Part shown: piece by piece, positions 8,708 through 63,765 of the stretch
How positions within the stretch are numbered: the stretch's first letter is position 1
Layout of the letters: each line of letters starts with the position of its first letter
NCBI GenBank assembly: GCA_015067585.1
Contig: SVMC01000001.1
Coordinates: forward strand, 33,876-97,875
DNA from: Oscillospiraceae bacterium
GTDB taxonomy: Bacteria; Bacillota; Clostridia; Oscillospirales; Oscillospiraceae
DNA: 64,000 bases
Reading direction: 5' to 3'
The notes under the pieces: generated by a model
Told to the model about the DNA's origin: nothing
Seen by the model: only the letters and a program-made list of their open reading frames with translations
The model's database searches: none
Position numbers and translations under genes: made by a program

Positions 8708-8735
8708 GTCAATCAGGGGACGGTTCCCTGTTGAC
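8708..8735. repeat. REP-like palindromic unit (gtcaatcaggggacggttccctgttgac)
   Basis: One of seven units of the same roughly 29-bp palindrome in this window. It lies 10 nt after the alr stop. Confidence 0.9.
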
Positions 8736-8758
8736 ATACCGCAGAGAAAGGAAACACT

Positions 8759-9277
8759 ATGGAAAAGATTCGGGGGTTCTACCCTGTTTGGAAATGGTTT
8801 TTGCAGGAGCGGCTGCTGGATGAGGCGTCCCAGCGGGGGCTGCAGCTGAAAAAGGCCGGTTTATTTTCTGTGAGCTATGAATTCGACGATACGAAAGCCT
8901 GTCGTCACCGTATCATTGCCTGCGAGGCAGCCAAGGGCAGCGCCAGCCGGCTGCAGTTTGAGCTTGCGTGGCAGCGGGAAGGCTGGGAAAAGATATGCCG
9001 CAGGGGCAAGCTGCTGTATTACCGCAGTCCCGCGGAGAAAAACTGCGATGAGCCGAAGGAAAATGACCTTCTGATGGTGCTGCGCCGCAGCATCCATCGC
9101 TGGGAGGTGCTGCGGCTGTGGCTTTTGGTGCTGTCTGCCCTGTGCATCATTGCAGGCTACGCCATTGATCTGTTCTGGATCGTGCGGCTGAGTGTGATCC
9201 CCCTTGCCATTGCCCTGCTGCTGACCCTAATGATCGACCGGCTGCAGAAGGCCAAGGCACACTGTCCGGATGCATAA
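8759..9277 (+). CDS. DUF2812-like membrane protein (tentative)
   Basis: 172 aa. The N-terminal soluble part with W.L.E.L...S..G..L and two C-terminal TM segments resembles DUF2812 architecture. Confidence 0.5.
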   Translation: MEKIRGFYPVWKWFLQERLLDEASQRGLQLKKAGLFSVSYEFDDTKACRHRIIACEAAKGSASRLQFELAWQREGWEKICRRGKLLYYRSPAEKNCDEPKENDLLMVLRRSIHRWEVLRLWLLVLSALCIIAGYAIDLFWIVRLSVIPLAIALLLTLMIDRLQKAKAHCPDA

Positions 9278-9285
9278 GCATAAAC

Positions 9286-9323
9286 AAAAATGGCAGATCC
9301 CGAATCTGGGATCTGCCATTTTG
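9286..9323. terminator. Bidirectional intrinsic terminator (aaaaa tggcagatccc ... gggatctgcca tttt)
   Basis: 11-bp perfect stem flanked by an A-tract and a T-tract, between convergent genes. Confidence 0.8.
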
Positions 9324-9333
9324 CTTGAATAAA

Positions 9334-10587
9334 TTATACGCCTTCGTACAGGGGGTACTTTTCGCACAGGGCGGAAACGGCGGCGAGGATGTCCTTCTGG
9401 CTGGCTTCGTAGTCGAAGACGGTGCGGCAGATGAGGCCGCCCAGGATCTTGATGTCCTCTTCCTTGAGGCCACGGGTGGTGACAGCGGGAGTGCCAACGC
9501 GGATGCCGGAGGTTTCGCGGGGGCTGCGGGTGTCGCCGGGCACCATGTTCTTGTTGACGGTGATGCGGACGCTGTCCAGACGCTCTTCCAGCTCACGGCC
9601 GCTGATGGCCTGATTTCTCAGGTCGAGGAGGAGCAGATGGTTGTCGGTGCCGCCGGAGACCAGATCGACACCGCCGGAGAGCAGGCTTTCGCCCAGAACC
9701 TTGGCATTGCGGACCACCTGTGCCTGATATTCGGCAAATTCGGGCTTGAGAGCTTCGCCCAGCGCAACGGCCTTGGCTGCGATGATGTGCATGAGGGGGC
9801 CGCCCTGGGAGCCGGGGAATACGGCGCTGTTGACCTTCTTGGCGATGGCTGCATCGTTGGAGAGGATGATGCCGCCGCGGGGACCGCGGAGGGTCTTGTG
9901 GGTGGTGGTGGCTACCACATCGGCATAGGGCATGGGGGACATATGCTGGCCGCCTGCCACGAGGCCTGCGATATGGGCCATATCCACAAACAGGTAAGCG
10001 CCCACTTCATCGGCGATCTCACGGAAGATCTTGAAGTCGATGGCACGGGGATAAGCGGAAGCGCCTGCAATGATCATCTTGGGATGATTTTCCAGTGCCT
10101 GTCTGCGGACATCTTCATAGTCGATCATGCCGGTCTGCTCGTTGACGCGGTAGGATACGATATTATAGAGCTTGCCGGAGAAGGAAACGGGGCTGCCGTG
10201 GGTCAGGTGGCCGCCGTTGGCAAGGTCCATACCCAGAACGGTGTCGCCGGGCTTGCACAGAGCCATGTAGACGGCGCAGTTGGCCTGAGAGCCGCTGTGG
10301 GCCTGGACATTGGCAAAGTTTGCGCCAAAGAGGGCCTTAGCACGCTCGATGCAGATGTTCTCCGCAATGTCAACATGTTCGCAGCCGCCGTAGTAACGGC
10401 GTCCGGGATAACCTTCGGCATATTTATTGGTCAGGACAGAACTCATGGCAGCCATGACCGCGGGGCTGACCAGATTTTCGGATGCGATCAGCTCTAAATT
10501 ATTGCGCTGACGCATGAGTTCAAGATTGATGACCTCTGCGATATCGGGGTCCTGTGCAGCAACGAGACGGATGGCTTCTTCTACCAT
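9334..10587 (-). CDS. glyA: Serine hydroxymethyltransferase
   Basis: 417 aa. Carries [26 protein letters not shown] and [11 protein letters not shown] motifs. Confidence 0.97.
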
Positions 10588-10765
10588 GATTTATTCTCCT
10601 TTATTGCAATAGTTGTCTACATCTTACCATGTTCCGCGATTGGGTGCAATGCCCAATGTTTGACAAAAAATTCGGTATTTTTGCCCAATTCTTTGCCGTT
10701 TCGGGCAGGGGATATTTTGTGGGGCAGGTGCATAGGATTTGGTACGGAATAATCAACAGACCTCA

Positions 10766-10816
10766 CCGTAGGGACAGCCGTCCCCGGCTGTCCGGTAGGG
10801 GTTACGAATTCGCCGG
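10766..10816 (+). repeat. Composite GC-rich intergenic repeat (ccgtagggacagccgtccccggctgtccgg ... cgaattcgccgg)
   Basis: Near-identical to the reverse complement of 63576..63630. Contains the hairpin ggacagccg/cggctgtcc. Confidence 0.85.
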
Positions 10817-10875
10817 AACCTGCATAAAATCGCGGCATTTTCTGCCGGGCGTGCAATGCAAAGGGGGGTAATACT

Positions 10876-11151
10876 ATGGGAAACCGGATTGCGGACTTGC
10901 GGTGCAAGGAAGTGGTGAACATATGCGATGGGGCGCGGCTTGGCTTTGTGTGCGATGTGGAGGTGGAGCTGAACTGCGGGAAGGTGACGGCGCTGCTGGT
11001 GCCGGGGCCGTGCCGTTTTTTGGGCCTGTTCTGGCGGGAATGCGACTATCTCATTCCCTGGAGCTGCATCCGGCGCATCGGGGAGGACATCATTTTGGTG
11101 GATGTGGTGCTGGACAGCGCCAAAACTCCAAGACCCCGCCGCTGGCCGTAA
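10876..11151 (+). CDS. YlmC/YmxH-family (PRC-barrel) sporulation protein
   Basis: 91 aa. Carries L..KEV.N..DG..LG.V.D.E.....G.V.A..VP. Confidence 0.8.
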
Positions 11152-11190
11152 AAATTTTTAAAAAAGTTTGCAAAACAGCGATAAAACCTC

Positions 11191-11219
11191 TTGCAAAATG
11201 GGAAAACTTGCGTTATAAT
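11191..11219 (+). promoter_or_regulatory. Sigma-A promoter of rpsB-tsf: TTGCAA, 17-nt spacer, TATAAT
   Basis: Hexamers read directly. A structured leader of about 125 nt precedes the rpsB ATG. Confidence 0.65.
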
Positions 11220-11348
11220 GTACTGCGCTGTGCTATGCACAGACATTCTAAACCACACACCCGAGGATCTTTCCGCTGCGGTGCCGCGAAGCGGTTGGCG
11301 GAGGAAATGACACGGGTGGAGGTAAAAACAAAAAAGGAGATTTTAAAA

Positions 11349-12074
11349 ATGGCAGTTGTATCTATGAAGCAGTTGCTGGAAGCCGGCGTGCACTTCGGTC
11401 ACCAGACCCGCCGCTGGAACCCCAAGATGGCCCAGTACATCTACACGGAGAGAAATGGTATCTATATCATTGACCTGCAGAAGACCGTGAAGAAGCTGGA
11501 AGAAGCTTATTCCTTCATCCGTGAGCTGGCAGCCAACGGCGAGTCCGTTCTGTTCGTCGGCACCAAGAAGCAGGCCCAGGACGCCATCAAGGAAGAGTCC
11601 GAAAAGGTCGGCCAGTTCTATGTCAACGCAAGATGGCTCGGCGGCATGCTGACCAACTTCAAGACCATGCGCACCCGTATCGACCGTCTGGCTCAGCTGA
11701 GAAAGATGGAAGCTGACGGCACCTTCGCTATGCTCCCCAAGAAGGAAGTCATCAAGCATCAGGGCGAGATCGCCAAGCTGGAAAAGTACCTCGGCGGCGT
11801 TAAGGAAATGAAGAGACTTCCCGGCGCTCTGTTCGTTGTCGACCCCCGCAAGGAAAGAAATGCCATCGCTGAAGCTCGCAAGCTGCACATCCCCATCGTC
11901 GCCATCGTTGACACCAACTGCGATCCCGACGAAGTTGACTATGTCATCCCCGGCAACGATGACGCCATCCGCGCCATCCGCCTGATCGCCGCCACCATGG
12001 CCAACGCTGTCACCGAAGGCCGTCAGGGCGAAGTCCTCACCGAGGCTGCTCCCGCCGCTCCCGCTGCGGAATAA
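11349..12074 (+). CDS. rpsB: 30S ribosomal protein S2
   Basis: [36 protein letters not shown]. The track ORF 10902..12074 is an upstream in-frame extension. Confidence 0.97.
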
Positions 12075-12131
12075 TTGATAACCCGTGCCCCAAGGGCACT
12101 TCCAAAAGATCATAATTAGGAGGATATTACC

Positions 12132-13049
12132 ATGGCATTTACTGCTGCTGATGTTAAGAAACTGCGTGAAATGACCAATGTCGGCATGATGGACTGCAAG
12201 AAGGCTCTTGTGGAAAACGACGGCGACATGGACAAGGCTGTTGAATGGCTCCGCGAAAAGGGCCTGGCCAAGGCTGCCAAGAAGGCTACCCGCATCGCTG
12301 CCGAAGGCATGGCTTACGCCACTGTCGAAAACGGTGTTGGTGTTGTTGTTGAAGTCAACATCGAAACCGACTTCGCTTCCAAGACCCCCGTATTCGTTGA
12401 TTTCGTTAAGGAAATCGCCAAGGTCGTCGTGGACAACGCTCCCGCTGACCTGGAAGCTCTCAAGGCTTGCAAGTATCCCGAATCCGAGCTGACCGTTGCT
12501 GAAATGATCCCCGAGAAGGTTATGGTCATCGGCGAAAACCTGCAGGTCCGCCGCTTCGCCCGCTTCAACGAAAACACCTCCGTGTCCTATGTACACGCAG
12601 GCGGCAAGATCGGCGTTCTGGTCAACCTGAAGGTCTCCGAAGGCATCGACGCTACCGTCGTTGGTAAGGACGTTGCCATGCAGATCGCTGCTCTGAACCC
12701 CAGATTCTGGGACAAGAGCGATGTCTCCGAAGCCGTTCTCGACGAAGAGAAGAAGATCCTCGTTGCTCAGATGGACAACGATCCCAAGATGGCTTCCAAG
12801 CCCCAGCAGGTCAAGGAAAAGATCGCTGCTGGCAAGATCAACAAGTTCTACGAAGAAAACTGCCTCCTGCAGCAGGCCTTTGTTAAGGACGGCTCCATGA
12901 GCGTTGCGCAGTATATCGCTTCCAGCGCCAAGGCTCTGGGCGGCACCATCGAATTCGTCGACGCAGTTCGCTTTGAAAAGGGCGAAGGCATCGAAAAGAA
13001 GCAGGAAGACTTCGCTGCCGAAGTCGCTGCACAGATGGCCGGCAAGTAA
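12132..13049 (+). CDS. tsf: Translation elongation factor Ts
   Basis: MAFTAADVKKLREMTNVGMMDCKKAL.ENDGDMDKAVEWLREKG. Confidence 0.97.
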   Translation: MAFTAADVKKLREMTNVGMMDCKKALVENDGDMDKAVEWLREKGLAKAAKKATRIAAEGMAYATVENGVGVVVEVNIETDFASKTPVFVDFVKEIAKVVVDNAPADLEALKACKYPESELTVAEMIPEKVMVIGENLQVRRFARFNENTSVSYVHAGGKIGVLVNLKVSEGIDATVVGKDVAMQIAALNPRFWDKSDVSEAVLDEEKKILVAQMDNDPKMASKPQQVKEKIAAGKINKFYEENCLLQQAFVKDGSMSVAQYIASSAKALGGTIEFVDAVRFEKGEGIEKKQEDFAAEVAAQMAGK

Positions 13050-13062
13050 TTTATCTACAGCT

Positions 13063-13101
13063 ACAGCACGACCGTGGGAAACCGCAGTCGTGCTGTTTTT
13101 T
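13063..13101 (+). terminator. Intrinsic terminator after tsf
   Basis: acagcacgac / gtcgtgctgt stem followed by ttttt. Confidence 0.85.
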
Positions 13102-13254
13102 GCATGGACATTGGAGCACAGTAACTACGGTTCTGCTTTTTGAAAAAATGTAATGTTCTCCTGTTGCATATTTGGCTGCAAGCTGATAAAATAATCAAGT
13201 TGGGCATTTTGAGGCCCGGTGGAATTCCAAAACATAGAAAGAGGAAATGAGAAA

Positions 13255-24134: not shown

Positions 24135-24210
24135 AATTCCCCCGTATTCCAAATCATTGTTAGAATTATTATAAGAGTGGTGGATGAAAAATGCAAGCCT
24201 TGCAAGTCGA

Positions 24211-25119
24211 TCAGGAGGCGGTTCCCCGATCGGCAAAGCGTTTGCTTTTCCTGTAAGCACCGGGACTTTGGCAGAACAATTCCCGGAATTTTCGACAGAA
24301 ATAACCGACATTCTCAAAACCGGTTTCCTCCGCGATCCGGGTCACACTCTTATCCGTGGTGCGAAGGAGCCTTGCGGCACAGTTCAGGCGGTACTGGATG
24401 AGATAGGCAATGGGAGATTGCTGGATACCGTCCCGGAAGATCTGCAGGGCACTGCTTTTGCTGATATACACCGAATCTGCAATTTCTTTCAGAGTAATCG
24501 TTTCTGTGTAATGGTCATGAATGTACTGAAGCATAAGCTGAAGCCTTGCCTGTGTGCTTCCGGGCCAGGATTTTTCATGGCGGTCCGTATGCTGCGCCAA
24601 AGTATCCCAGAGCGCCAACAGCCGCCGCAGGACTTGAAGCTCGTTGGGCCTTCCTGCCTCATGCATAGAGAATACAGCTTCCATCTCACAAAGGATCTGT
24701 GCCTGCCACGGTGTATCAAAGGAGAACAGGATGCATGGCATTGCGTTTTCTATCACAGGGCGCACATAGTCCCGGTAGATCAGGCTATCCTCCGGTGCCA
24801 GCAAGCAGGGAGAGAATACGAAATTCGGCATCAAAGCACTGCCGTTGGCAGAAAATCGATGCACGACCCGGCTGTTGATAAATACACCGCTGCCTGCCGG
24901 GATCGTCATCTGACAGCCCCCTGCACTCAGGGTAACAGAACCGCTTCTGACATATGCGAATTCCAATTCATCATGCCAATGCCAACCGATGGAATGCGCT
25001 TCGAAATCCCACACATTTTCCAGATAGTATTGAAAGGGATATTCGGCCTTTCCGTGTACGGCGGTTTCTCTCAGGTATTCATCCGTGGTGATTTTTAAGT
25101 CCGGGGAGTTTGCCTGCAT
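24211..25119 (-). CDS. AraC-family transcriptional regulator (cupin plus HTH)
   Basis: N-terminal cupin (HWHDELEF.YV..G). The C-terminus has AraC HTH helices (IA...GF.N..YF.R.F). Confidence 0.88.
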   Translation of the reverse strand: MQANSPDLKITTDEYLRETAVHGKAEYPFQYYLENVWDFEAHSIGWHWHDELEFAYVRSGSVTLSAGGCQMTIPAGSGVFINSRVVHRFSANGSALMPNFVFSPCLLAPEDSLIYRDYVRPVIENAMPCILFSFDTPWQAQILCEMEAVFSMHEAGRPNELQVLRRLLALWDTLAQHTDRHEKSWPGSTQARLQLMLQYIHDHYTETITLKEIADSVYISKSSALQIFRDGIQQSPIAYLIQYRLNCAARLLRTTDKSVTRIAEETGFENVGYFCRKFRELFCQSPGAYRKSKRFADRGTAS

Positions 25120-27557: not shown

Positions 27558-27561
27558 CAAT

Positions 27562-27727
27562 GATATCCGTTCCTGGCGGAACGGGTGATATATCTTCGAT
27601 ATGATATCCACCTGCGGTGGATGATATATGCCTTCGGCATATGGAGGAACGGATATTATATCATATTTGCAACGCAAATATATCATACGGCAAAGCCGTA
27701 TATCATATCGCGCAAGCGATATATCAT
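27562..27727. repeat. Array of 7 unique short hairpins separated by (G)ATATCAT-type constant motifs
   Basis: Hairpins lie at 27567-84, 27590-602, 27606-22, 27626-42, 27663-81, 27685-701 and 27705-22. ATATCAT occurs at 27658, 27680, 27700 and 27721. Confidence 0.85.
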
Positions 27728-27877
27728 TGAGTAATGCAACAAATTATGTTACCTCACGATGTTCATCCCCACTACTTTCTCCCAAAAATTTTTTCCAATT
27801 TCCCTCCCTTTGTTCATGACTAATTCATAATTATCCTGTATTGTGGCATTATATTTAAAACAAAGGAGGCGTAACCT

Positions 27878-32510: not shown

Positions 32511-32658
32511 GCGGAGGTTCCGCAATGATATAGATTAAAACTCTGTGTCACCGTCATCCTAAGACTTGTAGGGCGCAAGTCACTAATAAAGAATGCCCAC
32601 TGAGTTGATCTTCCCGTAGAGCGCGGGAAGGGTAAACAAAAAAATGCTCACCGAGAAG
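32511..32658 (+). ncRNA. Putative type III antitoxin-like RNA: three units of about 50 nt (hairpin, A-rich linker, YCACYG box)
   Basis: Unit hairpins are at 32511-23 (gcgga/tccgc), 32563-81 (gacttg-tagggcg-caagtc) and 32610-30 (cttcccg-tagagcg-cgggaag). The shared box is aatgcccactgag (32592) / aatgctcaccgag (32643). No ORF is present. Confidence 0.4.
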
Positions 32659-44446: not shown

Positions 44447-44505
44447 GTCAATCGGGGGACGGTCCCCCGATCGGCTTGCCGATCAGGGAACCGTCCCCTG
44501 ATTGG
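44447..44505. repeat. REP-like inverted doublet (two units facing each other around cggcttgccg)
   Basis: gtcaatcgggggacggtcccccgatcggc + ttgccgatcagggaaccgtcccctgattgg. It overlaps the 3' end of the deacetylase gene. Confidence 0.9.
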
Positions 44506-45196
44506 GCGCGTGAGCACCGGAGAACTGGCTGAACACATCCCCCGGCTGCATGGTGCAGTCGGCCAGCTCCGCCAATTCCGACACCGTCACGAAGGTAAAG
44601 CCCTGTTCACGGAGACGGTCGATGATCTGCGCCGCTGCCTCCACGGAGTAGGCATACATATCGTGCATCAGGATGATGTCGCCGTTTTTTGCCTGATCGC
44701 AGACCCTCTGTGCCATATCCTCCGCTTCGCCCCCCTGCCAGTCTAGCGAGTCCGCCGACCAAAGGATCACAGTAAGACCCGCCTCCCGGGCGGTCTCTCT
44801 GACGCTCTCGTTCCATGCCCCGCAGGGCGGGCGGAGAAGAACCGGCTGGGTGCCGCCGAATTCCCGGATCTGATCGGCGGTCCCCTGCAGCTCCTTTTGC
44901 AGTTCTTCACGGCACAGCACATCAAAGCAGGTGTGGCTGTAGCCATGCACCCCAAGCTCGTGTCCCGCTTCCCTGAGTTTCCCCACCAGCTCGGGGTATG
45001 TTTCCATCCGGTAGCCGCACAGAAAAAAGGTGGCCTTTACCTCCCTTTCCTGCAGCATTTCCAAAAGCGCTTCGGTATTATTGCCGCTGGGGCCATCATC
45101 AAAGGTCAGGGCCACATATTTGGCGGGCGCCGCGCAAACCGTGCCGGTGAGCACAAGCATCGTGAGCAGCGCAAGGATCAGCCGTTTCATATCCAC
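44483..45196 (-). CDS. Polysaccharide deacetylase (NodB homology domain), secreted
   Basis: Signal peptide. Carries ALTFDDGP, GHELG.H..SH and LLRPP.G. The last 7 codons (PNQGTVP) lie inside the REP unit. Confidence 0.88.
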   Translation of the reverse strand: MDMKRLILALLTMLVLTGTVCAAPAKYVALTFDDGPSGNNTEALLEMLQEREVKATFFLCGYRMETYPELVGKLREAGHELGVHGYSHTCFDVLCREELQKELQGTADQIREFGGTQPVLLRPPCGAWNESVRETAREAGLTVILWSADSLDWQGGEAEDMAQRVCDQAKNGDIILMHDMYAYSVEAAAQIIDRLREQGFTFVTVSELAELADCTMQPGDVFSQFSGAHAPNQGTVP

Positions 45197-50807: not shown

Positions 50808-50836
50808 GTCAATCGGGGGACGGTTCCCCGATTGAC
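50808..50836. repeat. REP-like palindromic unit (gtcaatcgggggacggttccccgattgac)
   Basis: Lies between the stop at 50852 and the TTG start at 50778 of co-directional genes. Confidence 0.9.
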
Positions 50837-53842: not shown

Positions 53843-56788
53843 TTATTCTGCCATCAGATAGGCATATTTGTCACGGATCGTCAGGATCAGAGCCTCGATG
53901 CCGGGGATCAGGTCGTTGGGCTTGGAAAGATCATACTTATTGACCCCGTCAAGGCGTACCAGCACCTGATTCTGATCGAGGAAGAGCACACCGGGATTCT
54001 TGGAATCCTGGAAACCTTCTCCATCCTGGAAGAGGGTGAATTTATCGTGGCAGGGTTCGGAATCATAGGGACAGAAGGGGGTGCAGTTGCCGCATTCGTT
54101 GCACATCCGGTCCACATGGAGGATCTGGCGGCTGCCGTCTGCCATGGTGATGACCACATTGGCACGGTTGGGGCAGACACTCACGCAGTTTTCGCACACA
54201 TGGCTGCACTGCAGGCAGCGCTCACCCTCACAGCCGCCCGCCATGGACAAAATGCCCTTCTTCGCCACGGCTTCATGGGCGGTGACGGCAGCAGCTTCGG
54301 GAATATCATAGACATAGGGTTCGCCAATGACGATTTCGGCAAATTTCGCCGCGTCCGCAATGCCCTCCACCACGGTGGCGGGGCCACGGCAGGCATCGCC
54401 TGCGGAATAAACCCCATCCAGATTGGTCTGGAAGGCAGGTCTGCCTCTGCGGTCCACTTTGATGCCATTGGAAGTCAGCAATTCTTCGTCCACCTGTTCG
54501 CCTACCGCGGAGATCACAAGGTCACAGGGGATGGTGAAGGTCTCACCGGTGCCCACAGGGCGTCTGCGACCGGAGGCATCCGGCTCGCCAAGGGTCATTT
54601 TTTCGCAGGTGAGAACACCCTCTGCCTGAGAGAGGGGAGCAGCCAACTCCACAAAGTTCACACCGTCTGCCAGTGCCAGCTCCAGCTCCTGAGGATCGGC
54701 GGGCATATATTTCTTCGTGCGGCGGTAGAGGATGGAGGCGGATTTCGCGCCGCCCCGGATGGCCACCCGGGCAGCATCCATGGCGGTGTTGCCCGCGCCG
54801 ACTACGACAACATGACCTTCCGCCTTGGCTGTTCCTGCCTTCATCTCCTTCATCCAGCCGATGACCCCCGCCACATTGCCGGGAATGTCCAGTTTTCCCG
54901 GCTTCCATGCGCCGGTGGCGATGAGGATATGGGTATAACCCATGGCCTTCAGTTCCTCCACCGAGGGGGCGGGTGCGCCGCAGCGCACTTCCACGCCATA
55001 GCGCTGCATCAGAGCGATATCCCGGTCGATGGCATCATGGGAGATACGGAATTCTGGGATGACATAGCGGACGATGCCGCCAAGCTGCGCTTCCCGCTCA
55101 AAGATGGTGGTCTCAATGCCGGCTCTTCCAAGGAAATAGCCTGCGGCAATGCCGGTGGGGCCGCCGCCGATGATGGCGGCCTTCTTGCCGGGTACCGGCT
55201 GGGGCTTGACGATGTCTGCCAGCACGGCGGCATAGCCATGCTCTGCTGCCAGCAGCTTGGTGTCCCGGATGCGGACGGATTCATCATAGAAGGTACGGGA
55301 GCAGCGAAGCTGGCAGCGATGGGCGCAGATGGTGCCGGTGATGAAGGGCAGCGCATTTCGCTCACAGATGAGCTTCAAAGCCGGAGCATACAGACCCTTG
55401 CGGCAAAGCTCCATGTACTCCGGGATATCCTGATCGATGGGACAGCCGCCACGGCAGGGTGCGATGCTGCAGTTCAGCAGAGGAACGGTTTCCCCATTCT
55501 TCCGGCTGGGCAGAGGCTTGATGGGTTTGACATGGTGGAAATCCTTACGGCAGGCCAAAGCCATATCGGCAATCGCCTCCGTATCCGTGCCGGAGAAGCG
55601 GACAAAGGGCAGCTTTTCCAGCGTTTCCGCCATCTGGGTCAGGCGGTTATAGCCGCCGGGTTTGAGAATGGTGGTTGCCACGGTGATGGGCCAGATGCCC
55701 GCCGCGAACAGGCCCTCGCAGTTGAAGGCATCCGCGCCGCCGGCATAGGACAGGCGCATTTTCCCGCCGAATTCACGGGAAATCCTGCGGCACATCTCAA
55801 TGGTCAGGGGGAAGAGGCTGCGGCCGGACATATACATCTCGTCCCCGGGCAGCTCGCCCCGAGTGGTGTCCACCGGGAAGGTGTTGGACAGCTTCAGGCC
55901 GAATTCCACCCCATGCTCCGCCGCCAAAGCCTGCAGCCGATGGAACATGGGAACGGCATCGGCATACTGCAGATCTTCCCTGAAGTGATGATCGTCAAAT
56001 ACGATGTAGTCATAGCCCATGGAGTCGAGGATGGAGCGGGCGGTCTCATAACCCAGAATGGTGGGATTGCACTTGACGAAGGTGTGCAAACCTTTTTCTT
56101 TAATCAGATAAGAGGCGATACGCTCGATCTCCTGTGGGGGACAGCCGTGGAGGGTGGACACGGTGACGGAGCGGGAGACCTTGGGACTGATGCTCCGGAT
56201 GAAGTCCTTTTCCTCCGGGAACAGCTCTTCCAGAACAGCTAAGCACTGGGGGAAGATTTCGGTCTTGGCGGCATCCTTCATGCCCTCAATATAAGTGTCG
56301 ATCTTTTCGCCCCGAATGCCCTCTAAGTCATAGCCTACGGATAGATTGATCACGAAGCCGTCGGGATCGCCGAAGCCGTAGACCTTGGCCAAGATCTTCA
56401 TGGCGCACCAGGCTTTGATGTATTCCTCCATGGCCTGGGGGACGGTCAGCTCCGTGGACCATTCCTGATTGTAGCCTTCGTCATCGGCTAAAATGCAGGG
56501 GCGGGGGATGCAGGCGGCCAGCTCTTCGCCGTCCATCTTCTGCACCGTCTTCACCTCGAAGAAGCGGGCACCCGCCACATAGGCGGCGATGATGTTCTGG
56601 GCAAGCTGGGAATTGGGTCCGGCTGCGGGGCCGATGGGTGTCTCGATGCGTTCCCCAAAAATAGGCAGCGTTTTGCCCTTGGCCGAATACTGGCTGTGGA
56701 TGCCAAAAATTTCGCCGGTGTTGGCATATTCACGGATCACCCACTGCATCAGCGGGCGGAATCCGATGGGATACATTTTTTCAGACAT
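53843..56788 (-). CDS. ygfK: YgfK-type putative selenate reductase/oxidoreductase subunit (DPD-like TIM barrel, FAD/NAD(P) domain, 4Fe-4S)
   Basis: 981 aa. The N-terminus resembles YgfK. Carries the dinucleotide motif IIGGGP.G and C-terminal CxxCxxCxxxCP ferredoxin motifs. Confidence 0.8.
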   Translation of the reverse strand: MSEKMYPIGFRPLMQWVIREYANTGEIFGIHSQYSAKGKTLPIFGERIETPIGPAAGPNSQLAQNIIAAYVAGARFFEVKTVQKMDGEELAACIPRPCILADDEGYNQEWSTELTVPQAMEEYIKAWCAMKILAKVYGFGDPDGFVINLSVGYDLEGIRGEKIDTYIEGMKDAAKTEIFPQCLAVLEELFPEEKDFIRSISPKVSRSVTVSTLHGCPPQEIERIASYLIKEKGLHTFVKCNPTILGYETARSILDSMGYDYIVFDDHHFREDLQYADAVPMFHRLQALAAEHGVEFGLKLSNTFPVDTTRGELPGDEMYMSGRSLFPLTIEMCRRISREFGGKMRLSYAGGADAFNCEGLFAAGIWPITVATTILKPGGYNRLTQMAETLEKLPFVRFSGTDTEAIADMALACRKDFHHVKPIKPLPSRKNGETVPLLNCSIAPCRGGCPIDQDIPEYMELCRKGLYAPALKLICERNALPFITGTICAHRCQLRCSRTFYDESVRIRDTKLLAAEHGYAAVLADIVKPQPVPGKKAAIIGGGPTGIAAGYFLGRAGIETTIFEREAQLGGIVRYVIPEFRISHDAIDRDIALMQRYGVEVRCGAPAPSVEELKAMGYTHILIATGAWKPGKLDIPGNVAGVIGWMKEMKAGTAKAEGHVVVVGAGNTAMDAARVAIRGGAKSASILYRRTKKYMPADPQELELALADGVNFVELAAPLSQAEGVLTCEKMTLGEPDASGRRRPVGTGETFTIPCDLVISAVGEQVDEELLTSNGIKVDRRGRPAFQTNLDGVYSAGDACRGPATVVEGIADAAKFAEIVIGEPYVYDIPEAAAVTAHEAVAKKGILSMAGGCEGERCLQCSHVCENCVSVCPNRANVVITMADGSRQILHVDRMCNECGNCTPFCPYDSEPCHDKFTLFQDGEGFQDSKNPGVLFLDQNQVLVRLDGVNKYDLSKPNDLIPGIEALILTIRDKYAYLMAE

Positions 56789-56813
56789 GATTCTTCCTCC
56801 TCAAGTTGTGGCG

Positions 56814-56873
56814 GTCAATCAGGGGACGGTTCCCTGATCGACTTGTCGATCGGGGAACCGTCCCCCGATTGAC
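56814..56873. repeat. REP-like inverted doublet between ssnA and ygfK
   Basis: gtcaatcaggggacggttccctgatcgac tt gtcgatcggggaaccgtcccccgattgac. Confidence 0.9.
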
Positions 56874-56881
56874 ATTCCCCC

Positions 56882-58222
56882 TCAATACTCACAGCCGTTC
56901 AGGCTGCCCCAGAGTTTTTTGGAGGCCTCTAAGATATGGGCGTTTTCCGCTTCCTCGTCGATGCCGATGAGCTCGCGGTCTTTCATCAGCACCTTGCCGG
57001 CTGCCACGGTGGTCTGGCACTGGCGGCCGGTCATGCCGAAGAGCATATGGCCGTCGATGTTGTCCGCGCCGAAGGGGGTGAAGGGCTTGTAATCCATGAC
57101 GATCACATCGGCGGATGCGCCGGGCTCCAGCACGCCAAGGCGGGTGGGGAAATATTTTTCGCCGATCTTCGCGTTGTTGCGGAACAGCATATCCGTCACC
57201 TCGCACCAGCCCACATTGGGCAGGCAAGCATTCTGCCGCTGGGCGCACAGGGCGACTTTGATGGACTCCAGCATATCGTTGGTGTAGGCATCGGTGCCGA
57301 GACCAAGGAGGATGCCCGCCTTGTAGAGCTGCAGCACCGGGCAGGTGCCCACGGCATTGCCCATGTTGGACTCAGGGTTATTCACCACCATGGTGCCGGT
57401 GTTGGCAATGATCTCGATCTCCGCGGAATTGACATGGATGCAGTGGCCCAAAATGGTTTTTTCGCCCAAGATCCCGTGATCCTGTAGCCGCTGCACCGGG
57501 CGGCGGCCGTAGTTCTGCAGGCTGTCGTACACATCATTCATGCCCTCGGACACATGGATATGATAGCCTGTACGGCCGTTATTCGCCGCCACCATGCGCT
57601 CAAAGGTCTTATCGGAGATGGTGAACAGGGCATGACCGCCGAACATGGCAGCGAGCATGGGATCTTTTTCTTTTTCGCAATAACTGATAAAATCCGCGTT
57701 CTCCTGAATGGCCTGCAGGCACTTCTCCTCTCCATCCCGGTCAGAGACCTCGTAGCACAGGCAGCTTCGCACGCCAAACTTCTTCGCAGAGGCGGCGATC
57801 TCCATCAAGGAGCCGGGGATCTCGCCGTAGGAGGCATGATGGTCAAAGATGGTGGTGACGCCCTGCTTGATGCAGTCGATGTAGAGGGCATCGGCGCTGG
57901 CACGGGTGCCGTCCAGCATCAGCTTGCGGTCGATGGCCCACCACTGACCGTCCAATACCTCATAGAAATTAGTGGCATTATAACCCTTAATACTCAGACC
58001 ACGGGCCAGAGCGGAATAGATATGGGTATGGGCATTGATGAGGGCGGGCATGATGACGCCGCCTTTGGCATCAATGAACTCCGCACCCGGATATTTTTCC
58101 TTCAGGTCCCTGGTGGTGCCCACCTCCAAAATGCGGTCACCATCCCAGACAACGCCGCCATCGGGCAAATAAGGTGTCTGGCTGCTGCGGGTGATGAGTC
58201 TGCCGTTTGCGAGCAAATACAT
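56882..58222 (-). CDS. ssnA: SsnA-type amidohydrolase (putative aminohydrolase of purine catabolism clusters)
   Basis: 446 aa. Carries G(G/K)..MP.LINAHTH.YS.LARG and metal-binding His/Asp of the amidohydrolase fold. Confidence 0.82.
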   Translation of the reverse strand: MYLLANGRLITRSSQTPYLPDGGVVWDGDRILEVGTTRDLKEKYPGAEFIDAKGGVIMPALINAHTHIYSALARGLSIKGYNATNFYEVLDGQWWAIDRKLMLDGTRASADALYIDCIKQGVTTIFDHHASYGEIPGSLMEIAASAKKFGVRSCLCYEVSDRDGEEKCLQAIQENADFISYCEKEKDPMLAAMFGGHALFTISDKTFERMVAANNGRTGYHIHVSEGMNDVYDSLQNYGRRPVQRLQDHGILGEKTILGHCIHVNSAEIEIIANTGTMVVNNPESNMGNAVGTCPVLQLYKAGILLGLGTDAYTNDMLESIKVALCAQRQNACLPNVGWCEVTDMLFRNNAKIGEKYFPTRLGVLEPGASADVIVMDYKPFTPFGADNIDGHMLFGMTGRQCQTTVAAGKVLMKDRELIGIDEEAENAHILEASKKLWGSLNGCEY

Positions 58223-58281: not shown

Positions 58282-58362
58282 ACTCAAGTAACTCCTGAGT
58301 GATAGTTGGAAGCCCGTGTGCGAAACACTTCGTTACAGCTATCAATCTTCAATTCTATGCAT

Positions 58363-58391
58363 ATTATAATCGGAAAAGACCGCTATTTCAA
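58363..58391 (-). promoter_or_regulatory. Sigma-A promoter of ssnA-ygfK: TTGAAA, 17-nt spacer, TATAAT
   Basis: Hexamers read on the minus strand. The leader to the ATG at 58222 is about 135 nt. Confidence 0.65.
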
Positions 58392-58440
58392 GAGCAAACG
58401 CCGCGGTCATTTGCAACAAAAATGTATTTCCTCTTTTGTG

Positions 58441-58581: not shown

Positions 58582-58617
58582 GATATTTTGCAAAGTGTGT
58601 CGTAAACGGCCGGAAGA

Positions 58618-58851: not shown

Positions 58852-58892
58852 GAATAGTTCCTCCTTCATTTAAATTTTGTGAAAAAGCTCTT

Positions 58893-59399: not shown

Positions 59400-59408
59400 A
59401 TTGCCTCC

Positions 59409-59705
59409 TTACTCCTCAATAGCGATGATGAGAGAGCGCATGATGCCTTCAGTGATCTTGAACACGCGGTCCAGCTCAGCGGGGAGCTCGGGCTTGCATT
59501 CGCAGGTCATCAGGACATAGTAGCCTTCTGCCATGTCGTTGATGGGGTATGCAAGTCTGCGCTTGCCCCATTCGTCAACACTGGTCAGAGTGCCTTCCGC
59601 CTCGATCATTGCCTTGAACTTTTCCACGAGAGCAACTCTCTGCTCTTCCTCGATGGTAGCATCGATGATATAGAGGACTTCGTACTTTGCGGAAATCTTT
59701 GCCAT
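59409..59705 (-). CDS. rpsF: 30S ribosomal protein S6
   Basis: YE.LYI.......E........F...I...G.......WG.R.LAYPI. Confidence 0.95.
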   Translation of the reverse strand: MAKISAKYEVLYIIDATIEEEQRVALVEKFKAMIEAEGTLTSVDEWGKRRLAYPINDMAEGYYVLMTCECKPELPAELDRVFKITEGIMRSLIIAIEE

Positions 59706-59890
59706 GGTTCTTTGCACCTCCTTATGGACTTCAGGCCGCCGTCTTGCGGCGGCAAGGATTTATCTGCCTGCGCAGACCAGATTATATTAAAGCATTTTCT
59801 TCCATTTGTCAATATAAATTTGAAGTATTTTGCATTTTTAATGCGGCACCAAGGCGGAAGGCGGCGCATTTTGCGGCGCAGCACCTTGTG

Positions 59891-59952
59891 AAAAAACAGA
59901 ACCCCATAGTGCAACCCAAAAACCTGACATTTTGGGAAACTGCACTATGGGG
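59891..59952 (-). terminator. Intrinsic terminator after the proline-rich ORF
   Basis: ccccatagtgca / tgcactatgggg outer stem with an inner cccaaaa/ttttggg pairing and a U-tract (uucuguuuuuu) on the minus strand. Confidence 0.8.
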
Positions 59953-60025
59953 CATACATTACTGACGGTCCGGGGGTGGTCTGCGCTTGTGCGGAAGGTA
60001 TCTCAGGACTTGCGCACCACCCCCG

Positions 60026-60592
60026 TCAGCGTATCCGGGCAAGCTGACGGGAACGGGCCTGGGACTCCCGGGCAAGCTGCCGGGCAGGCTGTGTGCAGGC
60101 TTCAGGAAGCCGCTCCAGTGCGCGGCGAAGGGCTGCTTCCCGTTCCTGCTGTACCTGCAGGGAGATGACTGCAGGGGCAGTGTATGTTCCTGCAATGCCG
60201 CAGCGGCTTCGCAGTGTACTTTCCCCCCGGCGGCATTGGGCTGCCATCTGACGGAAGCCCGGAGAGCGGAAACGCATGGCCAATGCGTCATATCCGGCCG
60301 CAAGCTCCAGAAGCTGTGTCGCCGCAGAAGGTTGGGCTGGGGGCGGCGGAGGCGGCGGAGGTGGCGTCCATCCGCCCTGTCCCGGGGGATTGGGTCTGCC
60401 GCCCTGGCCCGGCGGCTGCCGGGTAGGCGGTGCGGGAGGCTTGTTGTCATCGGGATTCCGTGGCGGTGTGGGAGGTACCCCGCCCCGTCCGGCGGGAGGC
60501 GGCGCGGGCCATGCGCCGGGTGCAAAGACATCCCGCCCCGGCATGACCCTGGCCCATACCGAGCGCACCGCCCGGCGGTCATATGGATTCAT
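60026..60592 (-). CDS. Proline-rich hypothetical protein (188 aa, contains a run of 9 consecutive Pro)
   Basis: Of three overlapping frames, it alone has a strong RBS (AAGGAGGG, 6 nt before the ATG at 60592), and it is followed by a terminator. Confidence 0.55.
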   Translation of the reverse strand: MNPYDRRAVRSVWARVMPGRDVFAPGAWPAPPPAGRGGVPPTPPRNPDDNKPPAPPTRQPPGQGGRPNPPGQGGWTPPPPPPPPPAQPSAATQLLELAAGYDALAMRFRSPGFRQMAAQCRRGESTLRSRCGIAGTYTAPAVISLQVQQEREAALRRALERLPEACTQPARQLARESQARSRQLARIR

Positions 60593-60857
60593 AGCATTCC
60601 CTCCTTATCATGCTACCATCCTATGCCGGCATTCTGCTGTTGGTGCGGCCTTTTCCGTGATCCGCAGGCTGTCTTCGGTCAGATGCTCAAAAATTGCGGT
60701 CTGCACAGTTTTTTTGAGCATTTCCGAAAAAAATCATACCAATTCCATTAAGTATGTGTTATAATAGCATCATCACAAAGGAAATTATGCCCACAGGGCG
60801 AATTTCCCTGTATTTGCCCGCCTTTTTGGGCGGAGCACATATATCAACTGCAAAGGA

Positions 60858-61718
60858 ATGGATCATATGAAGAACATCACCAACCAAGAGCTGGCCCTTT
60901 GGGCGGCACGCGGCAGGCTTCTGGCGGTGGACGCAGTTCATGAAGCAGCCAGCGGCCATCCCGGCGGCTCCCTTTCGTGCATGGATGCACTCATCACCCT
61001 CTACTTCGCGGAAATGAACATCGACCCCGCCGACCCCAAGAAGGCAGACCGTGACCGTCTGGTCATGTCCAAGGGTCACTGCGCTCCCGCCCTGTACTCC
61101 GCTCTGGCACTGCGCGGCTACTTCCCCGTGGAAGACATGAAGCTCCTCCGCTCCATCAAGGCTCACTACTCCGGCCATCCCGACATGGTCAATGTTCCCG
61201 GTGTTGATATGTCCACCGGTTCTCTGTCCCAGGGTATGTCCGCAGCCGTTGGTATGGCTCTGGCGCTCAAGCATCAGGGCACTGACTGCCGCGTATACAC
61301 CATCTGCGGTGACGGCGAAATGGCAGAAGGCCAGATCTGGGAAGCTTCCATGGCAGCAGCCAAGTTCAAGCTGGACAACCTGTGCGTATTTGTAGACGTC
61401 AACGGTCTGCAGATCGACGGCGCCACCAAGGACGTTATGCCCTCCGAACCCCTGGATGCCAAGTTCGCAGCATTCAACTGGAATGTCATCAAGGTGGACG
61501 GCCATAACTTCGAAGAGATCCGCGCAGCACTGGCTCAGGCCCGTGAATGCAAGGGTATGCCCACTGTCATCCTGATGAAGACCGTCAAGGGCAAGGGCGT
61601 CAGCTTCATGGAAAACAATGCCGGCTGGCACGGCAAGGCTCCCAACGATGAGCAGCTTGCTGCCGCAAAGGCTGAGCTGGAACCCATCATTGCAGCACTT
61701 GAGAAGGAGGTAGGCTAA
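60858..61718 (+). CDS. Transketolase, N-terminal (TPP-binding) subunit
   Basis: GHPGGSLS, GHC.PALY and GDGE..EGQ.WEA motifs. 286 aa, the split form. Confidence 0.93.
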   Translation: MDHMKNITNQELALWAARGRLLAVDAVHEAASGHPGGSLSCMDALITLYFAEMNIDPADPKKADRDRLVMSKGHCAPALYSALALRGYFPVEDMKLLRSIKAHYSGHPDMVNVPGVDMSTGSLSQGMSAAVGMALALKHQGTDCRVYTICGDGEMAEGQIWEASMAAAKFKLDNLCVFVDVNGLQIDGATKDVMPSEPLDAKFAAFNWNVIKVDGHNFEEIRAALAQARECKGMPTVILMKTVKGKGVSFMENNAGWHGKAPNDEQLAAAKAELEPIIAALEKEVG

Positions 61719-61719
61719 T

Positions 61720-62667
61720 ATGGCAGGCAAGATCGCAACCAGAAGCGCCTACGGCAAGGCTCTCGCAGAGCTGGGCGCAAAGTATCCCAATGTGGTCGTG
61801 CTGGACTCCGACCTGTCCAACGCCACCATGAGTAAGTTCTTCGCAGCGGAATATCCCGAGCGTTTCTTCAACGTGGGTATCGCTGAGTGCAACATGGTCG
61901 GCGTCGCCGCCGGTATGGCAGCCGCCGGTCTCAAGCCCTTCACCAATACCTTCGCCATGTTCGCTGCCGGCCGTGCTTACGAGCAGGTCCGCAACTCCGT
62001 GGCATATCCCGGTCTGGGCGTGGTGTGCGTCGGCACCCACGGCGGCGTTTCCGTCGGTGAAGACGGCGCCACCCATCAGTGCATCGAGGATCTGGCCCTG
62101 ATGCGTGCCATCCCCGGCATGACCGTCATCCACCCCTGCGACGGCCACGAGACCGCCCTGGCAGTGGAAGCTCTGATCAACTATGACGGCCCCGCTTACC
62201 TGCGTCTGTCCCGTCCCAACACCGAAGTTTTCACCGATGAGATGGAAGGCTACAGCTTCGAGATCGGCAAGGGCGTCACCATGCGTGACGGCGCCGATGT
62301 CACTCTGGTCGCCACCGGCCTCATGGTGGGCATCGCAATGGACGCTGCCAAGATGCTGGAAGCAGAAGGCATTTCTGCCCGCGTCATCAACATCCATACC
62401 ATCAAGCCTCTGGACTGCGAACTGATCTGCAAGGCAGCCAAGGAAACCGGCGCTATCGTGACCTGCGAAGAGCACAACATCGTCGGCGGCCTGGGCGGCG
62501 CAGTTTCTGAGTGCGTGTCCGGCTGCTGCCCCGTTCCCGTTGTCCGCGTTGGTGTAGAAGACCAGTTCGGCCGCAGCGGCAAGGCAGACGAGTGCATGGC
62601 ATACTTCGGCCTCACTGCAGAGAACATCTGCGCCAAGGCAAAGGCAGCCATCGCCCTGAAAAAGTAA
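61720..62667 (+). CDS. Transketolase, C-terminal (pyrimidine-binding) subunit
   Basis: R.AYG.AL..LG, GIAE.NMVG.AAG.A and G.THQ..ED.A.MR. Confidence 0.93.
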   Translation: MAGKIATRSAYGKALAELGAKYPNVVVLDSDLSNATMSKFFAAEYPERFFNVGIAECNMVGVAAGMAAAGLKPFTNTFAMFAAGRAYEQVRNSVAYPGLGVVCVGTHGGVSVGEDGATHQCIEDLALMRAIPGMTVIHPCDGHETALAVEALINYDGPAYLRLSRPNTEVFTDEMEGYSFEIGKGVTMRDGADVTLVATGLMVGIAMDAAKMLEAEGISARVINIHTIKPLDCELICKAAKETGAIVTCEEHNIVGGLGGAVSECVSGCCPVPVVRVGVEDQFGRSGKADECMAYFGLTAENICAKAKAAIALKK

Positions 62668-62718
62668 AAAATAAGCGGCCGGGCAGTGAAAGCTGCCCGG
62701 CCGTTGCAAGGAGACATT

Positions 62719-63417
62719 ATGAAGCAAGCACTGCTTGAGGGTTTGAACCCCCTTGGCATCTCCCTCACGGAAGCACAGACCGACAATTTCTGCCGCTACG
62801 GCACTCTCTTAGTGGAGAAAAACGCGGTGATGAACCTCACCGCCATCACAGAGCCGAAGGATGTGGCCCTGCTCCACTTTGCCGACTGCCTTGCCCTGAC
62901 AAAGATCCGGGATTTTAAGGGAAAACGGGTCATCGATGTGGGCTGCGGCGCAGGCTTTCCCGGCGTTCCCCTGAAAATTGGGGAGCCTTCCATGGAGCTG
63001 ACCCTGCTGGATGCCACCGCCAAGCGGATGAACTGGCTGGAGCAGGAGCTGCTGCCGGAGCTGGGCTTGTCTGCAAAGTGTCTGACGGGCCGTGCGGAGG
63101 AGCTGATCGAAGGCCGCCGGGAGGGGTATGACATTGCCGTTTCCCGTGCCGTGGCAAGGCTCAATATGCTCTGCGAGCTGTGCCTGCCCTTCGTCAAGGT
63201 GGGGGGCTTCTTCCTCGCCATGAAGGGCGCCGCCGCCTCGGATGAGGCCGAGGAAGCCAAGGCTGCCATCCGTCTTTTAGGCGGCAAGCTGCGGGAAATC
63301 GCGGAATACCCCATTGGGGATGCGATGCACAGGGTGGTAGTGATCGAAAAGGTCCGTCCCACCCCGCCCAAATATCCCCGCCGCTTTGCCAAGATCAAGC
63401 AGCAGCCTCTTGTCTGA
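62719..63417 (+). CDS. rsmG: 16S rRNA (guanine527-N7)-methyltransferase
   Basis: N.TAI......(L/W).H..D(S/C)L and DVG.GAGFPG.PLKI. AAGGAG lies 5 nt before the ATG at 62719. Confidence 0.9.
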   Translation: MKQALLEGLNPLGISLTEAQTDNFCRYGTLLVEKNAVMNLTAITEPKDVALLHFADCLALTKIRDFKGKRVIDVGCGAGFPGVPLKIGEPSMELTLLDATAKRMNWLEQELLPELGLSAKCLTGRAEELIEGRREGYDIAVSRAVARLNMLCELCLPFVKVGGFFLAMKGAAASDEAEEAKAAIRLLGGKLREIAEYPIGDAMHRVVVIEKVRPTPPKYPRRFAKIKQQPLV

Positions 63418-63418
63418 C

Positions 63419-63543
63419 AGGGCAAGCTGCGCTTGCCCTCTCGATTTCGCTCCCTGACAGGAGCGAAATCATATCGAATTGCACAGCAATATATCGAATT
63501 CGCGAAGCGAATATATCGAGCTTCCCAAAGGGAAGCATATCGA
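63419..63543. repeat. Second hairpin array: 5 unique hairpins alternating with the constant ATATCGA motif
   Basis: Hairpins lie at 63419-39, 63443-70, 63478-90, 63498-512 and 63520-36. ATATCGA occurs at 63471, 63491, 63513 and 63537. Confidence 0.85.
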
Positions 63544-63575
63544 CAATAGCTGAAACGGCTTTGTTTTTATCGAAA

Positions 63576-63630
63576 CTACCGGCGAATTCGCCGCCTTTAT
63601 GCGGACAGCCGAGGACGGCTGTCCCTACGG
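63576..63630 (-). repeat. Composite GC-rich repeat, inverted copy of 10766..10816
   Basis: The reverse complement ccgtagggacagccgtcctcggctgtccg...ggcgaattcgccggtag matches the 10766 copy over both end blocks. Confidence 0.85.
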
Positions 63631-63666
63631 TGGAAGTTGGAGGTCTTTGCAGGACCGATATTTTAT

Positions 63667-63735
63667 CGTAGGGACAGGCCTCCGGACTGTCCGGCAGGAA
63701 AAGTTCCTTTTTCATTAAAACTACCGGCGAATTCG
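63667..63735 (+). repeat. Third, rearranged copy of the composite repeat (cgtagggacaggcctccggactgtccgg ... ctaccggcgaattcg)
   Basis: It shares the GTAGGGACAG..CTGTCCGG hairpin block and the ACCGGCGAATTCG block. The latter also occurs at 26499-26512. Confidence 0.75.
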
Positions 63736-63736
63736 T

Positions 63737-63765
63737 GTCAATCGGGGAACCGTCCCCTGATTGAC
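63737..63765. repeat. REP-like palindromic unit (gtcaatcggggaaccgtcccctgattgac)
   Basis: Lies 33 nt upstream of the rpiB ATG. Confidence 0.9.

Follow-up and report, generated by a model that had tools for sequence, protein, structure and literature searches.

REPIN-RAYT systems serve as a model of long-lived, vertically inherited replicators in bacterial genomes. The present analysis concerns a family of 29-bp palindromic repeats with the arms GTCAATC and GATTGAC, found in a stretch of 64,000 nucleotides from an Oscillospiraceae bacterium (assembly GCA_015067585.1, contig SVMC01000001.1, C33:33876-97875; hereafter the window), and a gene for a REP-associated tyrosine transposase (RAYT) on another contig of the same assembly. 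In Pseudomonas and Enterobacteria, a REPIN was defined as two inverted REPs inherited as one unit (Bertels & Rainey 2011, PMC3116915). In a further type of system, the TIRtron, RAYT-like TIRYT genes lie between inverted repeats sharing GGGGWSAS, and some of these repeats form moderately abundant families in dimers (Di Nocera, De Gregorio & Rocco 2013, PMC3733652). TIRYTs probably correspond to TnpA-Y1 subclass 2.1, for which C-terminal helix-turn-helix (HTH) domains (Bac_DnaA_C, HTH_23 or HTH_28) were noted; of the 292 RAYTs that Bertels et al. (2017, PMC5581495) assigned to Group 1, 291 were placed in this subclass, and REP-like sequences for it turned up neither in an automatic search nor in a manual one (Quentin et al. 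2018, PMC6006769). Group 1 was reported in Clostridia, and abundant repeats were tied to Groups 2 and 3 alone (PMC5581495). A full-text literature search returned no paper giving the core motif of the present family as a bacterial repeat, and TIRYT was named only in Di Nocera et al. and Quentin et al.

The repeats were interpreted, with a probability of roughly 0.8, as non-autonomous REP-type hairpins in REPIN-like doublets that are mobilised as single-stranded DNA hairpins by one RAYT, designated RAYT-1. The whole assembly (1.82 Mb, 66 contigs, GC 54%, estimated completeness 82%) was examined by mismatch scans and with an nhmmer profile, and 47 loci were located: 9 are single units, 2 are wide doublets and about 36 are tight doublets with a length of 60-61 bp, which gives a population of about 85 units. 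When the 19-mer GTCAATCRGGGGACGGTTC was used as a probe (up to 2 mismatches), the genome yielded 62 matches and the reversed control none, so that further copies occur well beyond those seen in the window by an initial annotation made from the sequence. Genes were called with a simple codon-usage model (1569 genes, 85.4% of the genome coding). All 47 loci were extragenic in this genome, three of them overlapping the last 24-28 nt of a gene, which is a non-random placement at a coding density of 85%. The further copies, the extragenic placement and the flanked RAYT gene described below support the proposal of the initial annotation that the family is REP/BIME-like and linked to a RAYT.

A search for Y1 transposases returned four genes, all on contigs other than that of the window, in agreement with the earlier observation that no RAYT-like gene lies within the window. 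Two of them passed the cut-off of 80 for NF047646 ('REP-associated tyrosine transposase'), with 88.5 bits for RAYT-1 and 80.9 bits for RAYT-2. RAYT-1 (C42:88133-88897, L003 1468-2232) is a single-copy gene for a Y1/HUH protein of 254 aa, and doublets of the GTCAATC family are present on both of its sides: the upstream one (L003 1373-1432) ends 36 nt before the start codon, and the downstream one (2205-2264) contains the last codons and the stop codon of the gene. The genome search for a RAYT that the initial annotation had suggested thus led to a gene on C42. The remaining two Y1 genes are TnpA genes of the IS200/IS605 type (C36:23416-23772 and C66:9669-10025; NF033573, 158-162 bits) and are not near the repeats.

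By sequence search of the PDB with RAYT-1, a sole match was obtained, 4ER8, the E. coli TnpA-REP (YafM), at E 3e-8. The structure of RAYT-1 was modelled with AlphaFold using 33 homologues (mean pLDDT 89.8), and the best Foldseek match of the model was 4er8_A (E 8.6e-9, TM 0.75 on the target), ahead of the transposases of ISDra2, IS608 and IS200. H60 and H62 (HUH), Y119 and N123 were invariant across the 33 homologues. In its best sequence and structure match, in the retained HUH and Tyr residues and in the REPtron layout, the system resembles the E. coli REP/BIME elements with TnpA-REP, and in both cases repeats lie in short gaps past stop codons. Unlike TnpA-REP, to which it is 24% identical over the catalytic core, RAYT-1 has about 90 more C-terminal residues, and the GTAG tetranucleotide, the Y/Z REP types and the BIME linker motifs of the E. 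coli REPs are lacking here. The GTAG tag was sought in 68 flanks, in which no conserved base was present at positions -12 to -1, the unit starting with GTCAATC. With the IS200/IS605 elements (IS608, ISDra2), the system shares the HUH/Y1 fold, the lack of a target duplication and, presumably, single-stranded hairpin ends recognised by structure; unlike these elements, each RAYT type is represented here by one gene copy, which has not itself been multiplied. Residues of about 190-247 of RAYT-1 form a confident helical domain in the model, and the match of the C-terminal extension to HTH_23 is weak (E 0.0098, 16.1 bits, cut-off 24.6). From its length, the weak HTH_23 match and its Clostridia host, RAYT-1 looks like an enzyme of subclass 2.1 (TIRYT, Group 1).

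Within the window, the seven units described in the initial annotation were recovered, the first doublet ending at 44506, together with an eighth, degenerate unit that had been overlooked. The single unit GTCAATCAGGGGACGGTTCCCTG-TTGAC (8708-8735), which has a 1-nt deletion in its 3' arm, lies 9 nt past the stop codon of the alanine racemase gene, with the next start 23 nt on; its DNA hairpin was calculated at -8 kcal/mol (z -3.1), and the same sequence was found in 7 independent metagenome contigs. The degenerate unit GTCGATCAGGAGGCGGTTCCCCGATCGGC (24206-24234, nhmmer E 0.002-0.013) shares about 26 nt with the 3' end of a gene predicted on the minus strand. At 44447-44506, a doublet forms a REPIN-like 60-bp palindrome with a long DNA hairpin of -25 kcal/mol (z -5.4); the second unit of this doublet contains, and so encodes, the last 8 codons and the stop codon (44483-44506) of the gene for the polysaccharide deacetylase (44483-45190, minus strand). 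The single unit at 50808-50836 is a perfect 29-bp consensus between minus-strand genes, 15 nt past a stop codon and with the next start 29 nt on (-12.6 kcal/mol, z -3.95; same sequence in 9 metagenome contigs). The second REPIN-like doublet (56814-56873) occupies a 93-nt gap, 8 nt off the stop codon of an ssnA-like amidohydrolase gene and 25 nt off the start codon of a ygfK-like oxidoreductase gene, and its long hairpin was calculated at -30.6 kcal/mol (z -8.8), whichever strand was folded. The last single unit (63737-63765) stands in the opposite orientation, with GGGAACCGTCCCC on the plus strand, and the rpiB start is 32 nt on (-11.9 kcal/mol, z -5.0). When folded as single-stranded DNA, the single units thus gave hairpins of 11-12 bp (-8 to -12.6 kcal/mol, z -3.1 to -5.0) and each doublet folded as a whole into a long hairpin of -25 to -30.6 kcal/mol, with z values from -5.4 to -8.8. 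The 13-mer half-site (up to 2 mismatches) had 15 matches in the window against 3.8 +/- 2.0 in shuffled sequences, and 0 of 100 shuffles reached 15. Orientation is set by the asymmetric centre, GGGGACGGTTCC versus GGGAACCGTCCCC, and the two units of the doublets face each other around GATCGGCTTGCCGATC and GATCGACTTGTCGATC, both as previously described.

The genes adjoining the units of the window (alanine racemase, polysaccharide deacetylase, membrane transporter, ssnA-like, ygfK-like, rsmG and rpiB) are ordinary housekeeping genes. This bears on the possibility that the repeats are sites of a site-specific recombinase or a regulator, namely integron attC-like boundaries or operators of a transcription factor. 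The 60-bp imperfect palindromes between co-directional genes are superficially attC-like, and the HTH-like C-terminal extension of the RAYT (the weak HTH_23 match given above) could bind double-stranded DNA. The neighbours, however, are not cassettes but housekeeping genes whose order is conserved (alr, glyA, rsmG, rpiB), copies are found in tandem arrays and between convergent or divergent genes as well, and the 47 loci have no shared functional theme. No integrase was noticed near the repeats, although no search aimed at integrases was made. Sites of this kind were considered a very improbable explanation.

The doublet, rather than the single unit, appears as the copied form. Covariation within doublets was judged on the 20 that are exactly 60 nt long. 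In all of them the outer arms GTCAATC...GATTGAC were invariant, and the inner arms occurred in three forms (GATTGAC/GTCAATC, GATCGAC/GTCGATC and GATCGGC/GCCGATC). Across the long hairpin, the variable inner columns (20/41, 21/40, 26/35 and 28/33) formed Watson-Crick pairs in 79 of 80 cells, and they often mismatched when paired inside their own unit. The R/Y position paired inside each unit, as A-T in one and as G-C in the other, and never gave a Watson-Crick pair across the long hairpin. Since this position differs between the halves, the doublet consists of two non-identical REPs inherited as one piece, and it fits the definition of a REPIN (PMC3116915). The unit at 63737 joins the R of one doublet unit to the Y of the other, and we infer that it is a doublet collapsed between its direct repeats; the single units are probably collapsed doublets.

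In these respects the family is comparable to the REPIN-RAYT systems of Pseudomonas and Enterobacteria (Bertels & Rainey 2011, PMC3116915), in which an inverted REP pair forms a long hairpin, is replicated as a unit and is extragenic. Also common to both are one RAYT copy per REP family with its own repeats flanking it, several families and RAYTs per genome, and lineage-specific stems. Those systems belong to Group 2 and 3 RAYTs; here, a different RAYT group is probably involved, the 5' GTAG tag is absent, the conserved element is at the apex of the hairpin and not at its foot, and copies are in tens, not hundreds. The host, presumably a gut Clostridia genome (1.8 Mb), differs as well.

Two sets of doublets were distinguished. 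Subfamily 1b comprises 13 near-identical doublets with one added base in the first unit, GGGGACTGTCC in the second unit and longer conserved flanks. The flanks of the main subfamily were mutually unrelated, with neither a conserved target nor a target duplication. Doublets were also seen in each repeat of two non-coding tandem arrays, C42:27894-29424 (L129 595-2125; 410 bp x 3.7 copies, 95% match) and C5:35795-36436 (L130 96-737; 320 bp x 2.0 copies, 99% match), and both wide doublets lie within the 320-bp duplication on C5. Several copies stand at contig ends (C12:214, C64:71891 and C25:33510).

The association between hairpin and enzyme was surveyed at the best 80 homologous RAYT loci in species-representative genomes. 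A core hairpin was present upstream in 48 of the 80 loci and an inverted one downstream in 41, both occurring together in 36; the upstream hairpin was mostly 60-70 nt ahead of the start codon, and the downstream hairpin directly past the stop codon. According to record labels, the hosts were mostly Clostridia (Oscillospiraceae, Acutalibacteraceae, Faecousia, Lachnospiraceae, Christensenellales, Desulfosporosinus, Syntrophomonas and Pelotomaculum), together with one relative of Bacillus and a small number of contigs whose labels name other phyla. The closest relatives of RAYT-1 were from metagenome-assembled genomes labelled Oscillospiraceae, Acutalibacteraceae and Lachnospiraceae; together with the Gut-1, ssnA and 6A motifs of the window, these labels make a Clostridia bacterium of gut or rumen the probable host. 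In the protein search, 5946 clusters were obtained at E <= 1e-10, and the named ones were annotated as 'transposase' or 'REP element-mobilizing transposase RayT'.

Stem covariation was analysed on 75 of the flanking hairpins, which were chosen for carrying the core. Under a model of an 11-bp stem, 90.3% of the cells were paired, compared with 72.4% in shuffles and 35-55% when the partner was slid, and 137 double-change cells were counted against 41 expected (0 of 500 shuffles gave as many). The covariation was confined to the six basal pairs, in which AU, CG, GC and UA all occur, and the apical GGGGACGGTTCT was invariant in this core-selected set. Such a pattern would be consistent with an enzyme that reads the apex and the shape of the hairpin, not the sequence of its stem. 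In a maximum-likelihood tree of 49 RAYTs, stem type was clustered, with 18 changes against 30.5 for shuffled labels; RAYT-1 was sister to another AATC-stem enzyme, and RAYT-2 fell within a CACA-stem clade.

The unrelated flanks and the covarying stems bear on a second alternative, in which the repeats are miniature inverted-repeat transposable elements, that is, internally deleted DDE-type insertion sequences with GTCAATC...GATTGAC as terminal inverted repeats. Doublets do resemble two joined inverted ends, and the copies at contig ends behave as assembly-breaking repeats. Against this stand the lack of both a target-site duplication and a conserved target, and a conserved apex on a covarying stem, which is the signature of single-strand HUH substrates. 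The sole gene flanked by these arms is of the Y1/HUH type, and no DDE transposase was noticed between them, although none was searched for systematically. An origin of this kind was therefore regarded as scarcely probable.

The proposed mobilisation of the hairpins by RAYT-1 finds a close parallel in the TIRtrons. As in a TIRtron, the Y1/HUH gene is longer than the E. coli RAYT and has a C-terminal extension, which may be of the HTH kind, inverted GGGG-rich repeats stand at fixed distances, dimer families occur in some genomes, and the hosts are Clostridia. When compared with the GGGGWSAS of TIRtrons, GGGGACGG agrees at 7 of 8 positions, and GGGGACAG, carried by subfamily 1b and by the copy downstream of RAYT-1, at 8 of 8. 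Whereas the TIRtron literature speaks of terminal inverted repeats, the flanks here are hairpins with a covarying stem and, in the 75 core-selected hairpins, an invariant apex of 11 nt, and, unlike in the reports on subclass 2.1, the repeats have expanded to about 85 units as REPIN-like doublets.

At the homologous loci, TTGAC(A) was present at the 3' arm in 30 of the 48 upstream hairpins, and in 29 of these 30 a TAnnnT box followed 16-18 nt on, succeeded by a ribosome site of the GGTGAT or GAGGTG type and the start codon. The -35 box of the RAYT promoter thus falls within the upstream hairpin's reach, and the RAYT may regulate its own expression through this overlap. As a separate candidate, a mobile promoter formed by the outward TTGAC at the end of every genomic repeat unit was considered and rejected: a TAnnnT box at 16-18 nt was found for 1 of 78 ends, under the rough chance expectation of about 3.

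The initial annotation had placed all copies in short intercistronic gaps between co-directional genes. Confinement to such gaps was not sustained by the census, the family occurring also outside short or co-directional gaps. Co-directional placement holds for the window; genome-wide, 32 loci lie between co-directional, 9 between convergent and 4 between divergent genes, and a preference was dismissed because these counts match the background of intergenic types (1112 co-directional regions of 142.9 kb in total, 195 convergent of 38.5 kb and 196 divergent of 64.6 kb). Calculated from the locus counts, 0.22, 0.23 and 0.06 loci per kb of intergenic DNA were obtained for co-directional, convergent and divergent regions, respectively. 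The repeats are depleted in divergent, promoter-only regions. In co-directional gaps, the upstream stop codon was closer to the repeat than the next start codon in 23 of 30 cases (binomial p ~0.003). An intrinsic terminator was also considered and rejected, as no T-run follows the units and no terminator-like site was found at 56700-57000, the one doublet locus scanned.

This placement is what would be expected if the repeats were DNA or RNA structures serving the host, such as stabilisers of mRNA 3' ends, attenuators, or sites for gyrase or nucleoid proteins, with the Y1 link being secondary. The proximity to stop codons (23 of 30 gaps), the depletion of divergent promoter regions (4 loci in 64.6 kb) and the great stability of the hairpins all agree with it, and E. 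coli REPs are known to have side roles of this kind (reviewed in PMC6006769). The GTCAATC family, however, is absent from 8 species of the same genus and from 32 further relatives, so that no orthologous gap depends on GTCAATC repeats. The flanking genes are without a common function, single units occur in both orientations with respect to transcription, no T-run is present past the hairpins, no terminator-like site is present at the doublet locus that was scanned, and a -10 box stands at promoter spacing for 1 of the 78 outward TTGAC ends. As the primary explanation, a host function was judged unlikely; as a side effect, it is compatible with mobilisation by RAYT-1.

Further hairpin families were found in the same genome. 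RAYT-2 (C42:95523-96266, within locus L004, C42:95460-97740) encodes 248 aa, is 56% identical to RAYT-1, and is flanked, then trailed by several doublets, of a second family, (A/G)ACACAGGGGACGGTTCT(A/G)TGTGT (ACACAGGGGACGGTTCTGTGT units); the core GGGGACGGTTC is common to this family and the GTCAATC family. For a third family, AGACAGGGGACGGTTCTGTGTCT, 17 units were counted (e.g. C29:19830-26660), and no cognate gene was found in this incomplete assembly. Separately, a family of GTAG-tagged hairpins, GTAGGGGACGGGTCTCCCGTCCC, is represented by about 12 copies (C42:85642, C33:18550, C24:17445, C25:12541 and about 8 more), none of which is in the window. These hairpins are physically nested with 1b doublets in a composite element, and a matching GTAG-type RAYT was not found in this assembly.

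Distribution among relatives was examined at the levels of stem, core and enzyme. The GTCAATC stem was absent from all 40 relatives, including 8 species of the same genus. The core 12-mer AGGGGACGGTTC, of which 51 copies are present here, was counted 56, 53 and 39 times in three species of the same genus and 65 times in a member of another genus of the family, with 0-1 for the reversed control. Other stems were carried by core-rich relatives, such as AGGACAG in G003 and GCACAAG in G019. RAYT homologues were detected in G001, G004, G018 and G037; in G002 and G003, the matches to NF047646 were weaker.

A contig of a sister lineage (L162), whose DNA is about 90% identical, carries a RAYT of 82% identity at the same locus, where the gene follows that of a type III glutamine synthetase and stands between GTCAATC doublets. 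A composite of about 150 nt at C42:85676, made up of a 1b doublet and a second inverted copy of the GTAG-tagged hairpin, is missing from L162. Synteny between the two lineages stops exactly at the doublet downstream of the RAYT (C42:88930 versus L162:6619-6680), and the next gene of L162, encoding a P-type ATPase, adjoins a different doublet in the present genome (C47:10505-10565). The synteny break thus points to a rearrangement between repeat copies, or to a large insertion between them. In a metagenome-wide scan with the 25-nt unit, one foreign contig was obtained; it was AT-rich, unrelated to this genome, and held a solitary copy.

Several observations weigh against mobilisation by RAYT-1. 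No insertion polymorphism was seen within the species, as 16 of 16 independent metagenome contigs were identical at two loci of the window; being identical, these contigs give no information on mobility. In the core-rich genomes G019, G006 and G005, no RAYT was detected; their repeats may be orphans that outlived the enzyme, or the gene may fall in assembly gaps. Close relatives of the RAYT at times carry different stems, so that the specificity between enzyme and stem is loose; strict co-diversification of enzyme and stem was rejected, since stems switch among close relatives despite their clustering on the tree, and for this reason stem-specific recognition is not claimed. The GC content of RAYT-1 and RAYT-2 is 42-43%, against 55.8 +/- 3.6% for the genes of the genome, of which less than 1% lie below 43%, and the codon-usage gene caller missed at least RAYT-1 on this account. 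Such a low-GC gene may be a recent arrival, which would be hard to square with diversified repeats. The promoter of RAYT-1 looks degenerate, with a spacer of 13 nt after TTGACG, and may therefore be weak. Finally, cleavage, excision and insertion were not observed directly; cleavage and copying of the repeats by the enzyme and its recognition of the apical motif are inferences, as would be any effect on mRNA.

The following course is proposed. The replicating form would be the 60-bp inverted doublet, corresponding to a REPIN. RAYT-1, the gene of which lies between two doublets in a REPtron/TIRtron layout, most likely cuts and rejoins the doublets as single-stranded DNA hairpins. It probably recognises the invariant apical motif GGGGACGGTTC(T) on a stem that can drift; recognition of the apex with free drift of the stem would account for stems that are the species' own and for the same core at the homologous loci. 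Copies would persist only where they are harmless, that is, outside genes and mostly directly past stop codons.

Other features of the window were recorded with Rfam. Matches above the gathering score were two Gut-1 RNAs, which adjoin a tRNA (27558-27632, plus strand, and 27653-27729, minus strand), a 6A RNA (32606-32656, plus strand) and an ssnA motif (58301-58348, minus strand), the last of which sits upstream of the ssnA-like gene. No Rfam match was obtained at the repeat units or in the tandem-array loci.

In the published view, true REPIN populations are a feature of Proteobacteria, where they accompany two of the RAYT groups, and Group 1 (subclass 2.1), the largest, is without a REP-like partner. 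Here, a RAYT that looks to be of the Group 1/subclass 2.1 type is found with a full repeat population, which provides a candidate substrate for an uncharacterised enzyme subclass and extends REPIN biology to abundant gut and rumen Clostridia. The repeats also break metagenome assemblies, and in one instance an indel and a break in synteny between sister lineages fall at repeat copies. The core 12-mer offers a simple marker for finding such repeat populations. In a wider form, the proposal that HTH-bearing enzymes of subclass 2.1 run a REPIN system in many Bacillota, with hairpins read at the apex, autorepression and orphan populations, is given even odds. If it is true, genomes with 39-65 core copies and no detected RAYT would hold orphan populations that remained once the enzyme had been lost, and the enzyme or its HTH domain could repress its own gene through the hairpin over the -35 box. 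With the apex rather than a foot tag as the determinant, stems would be free to drift or switch, and every species would come to have a repeat family of its own.

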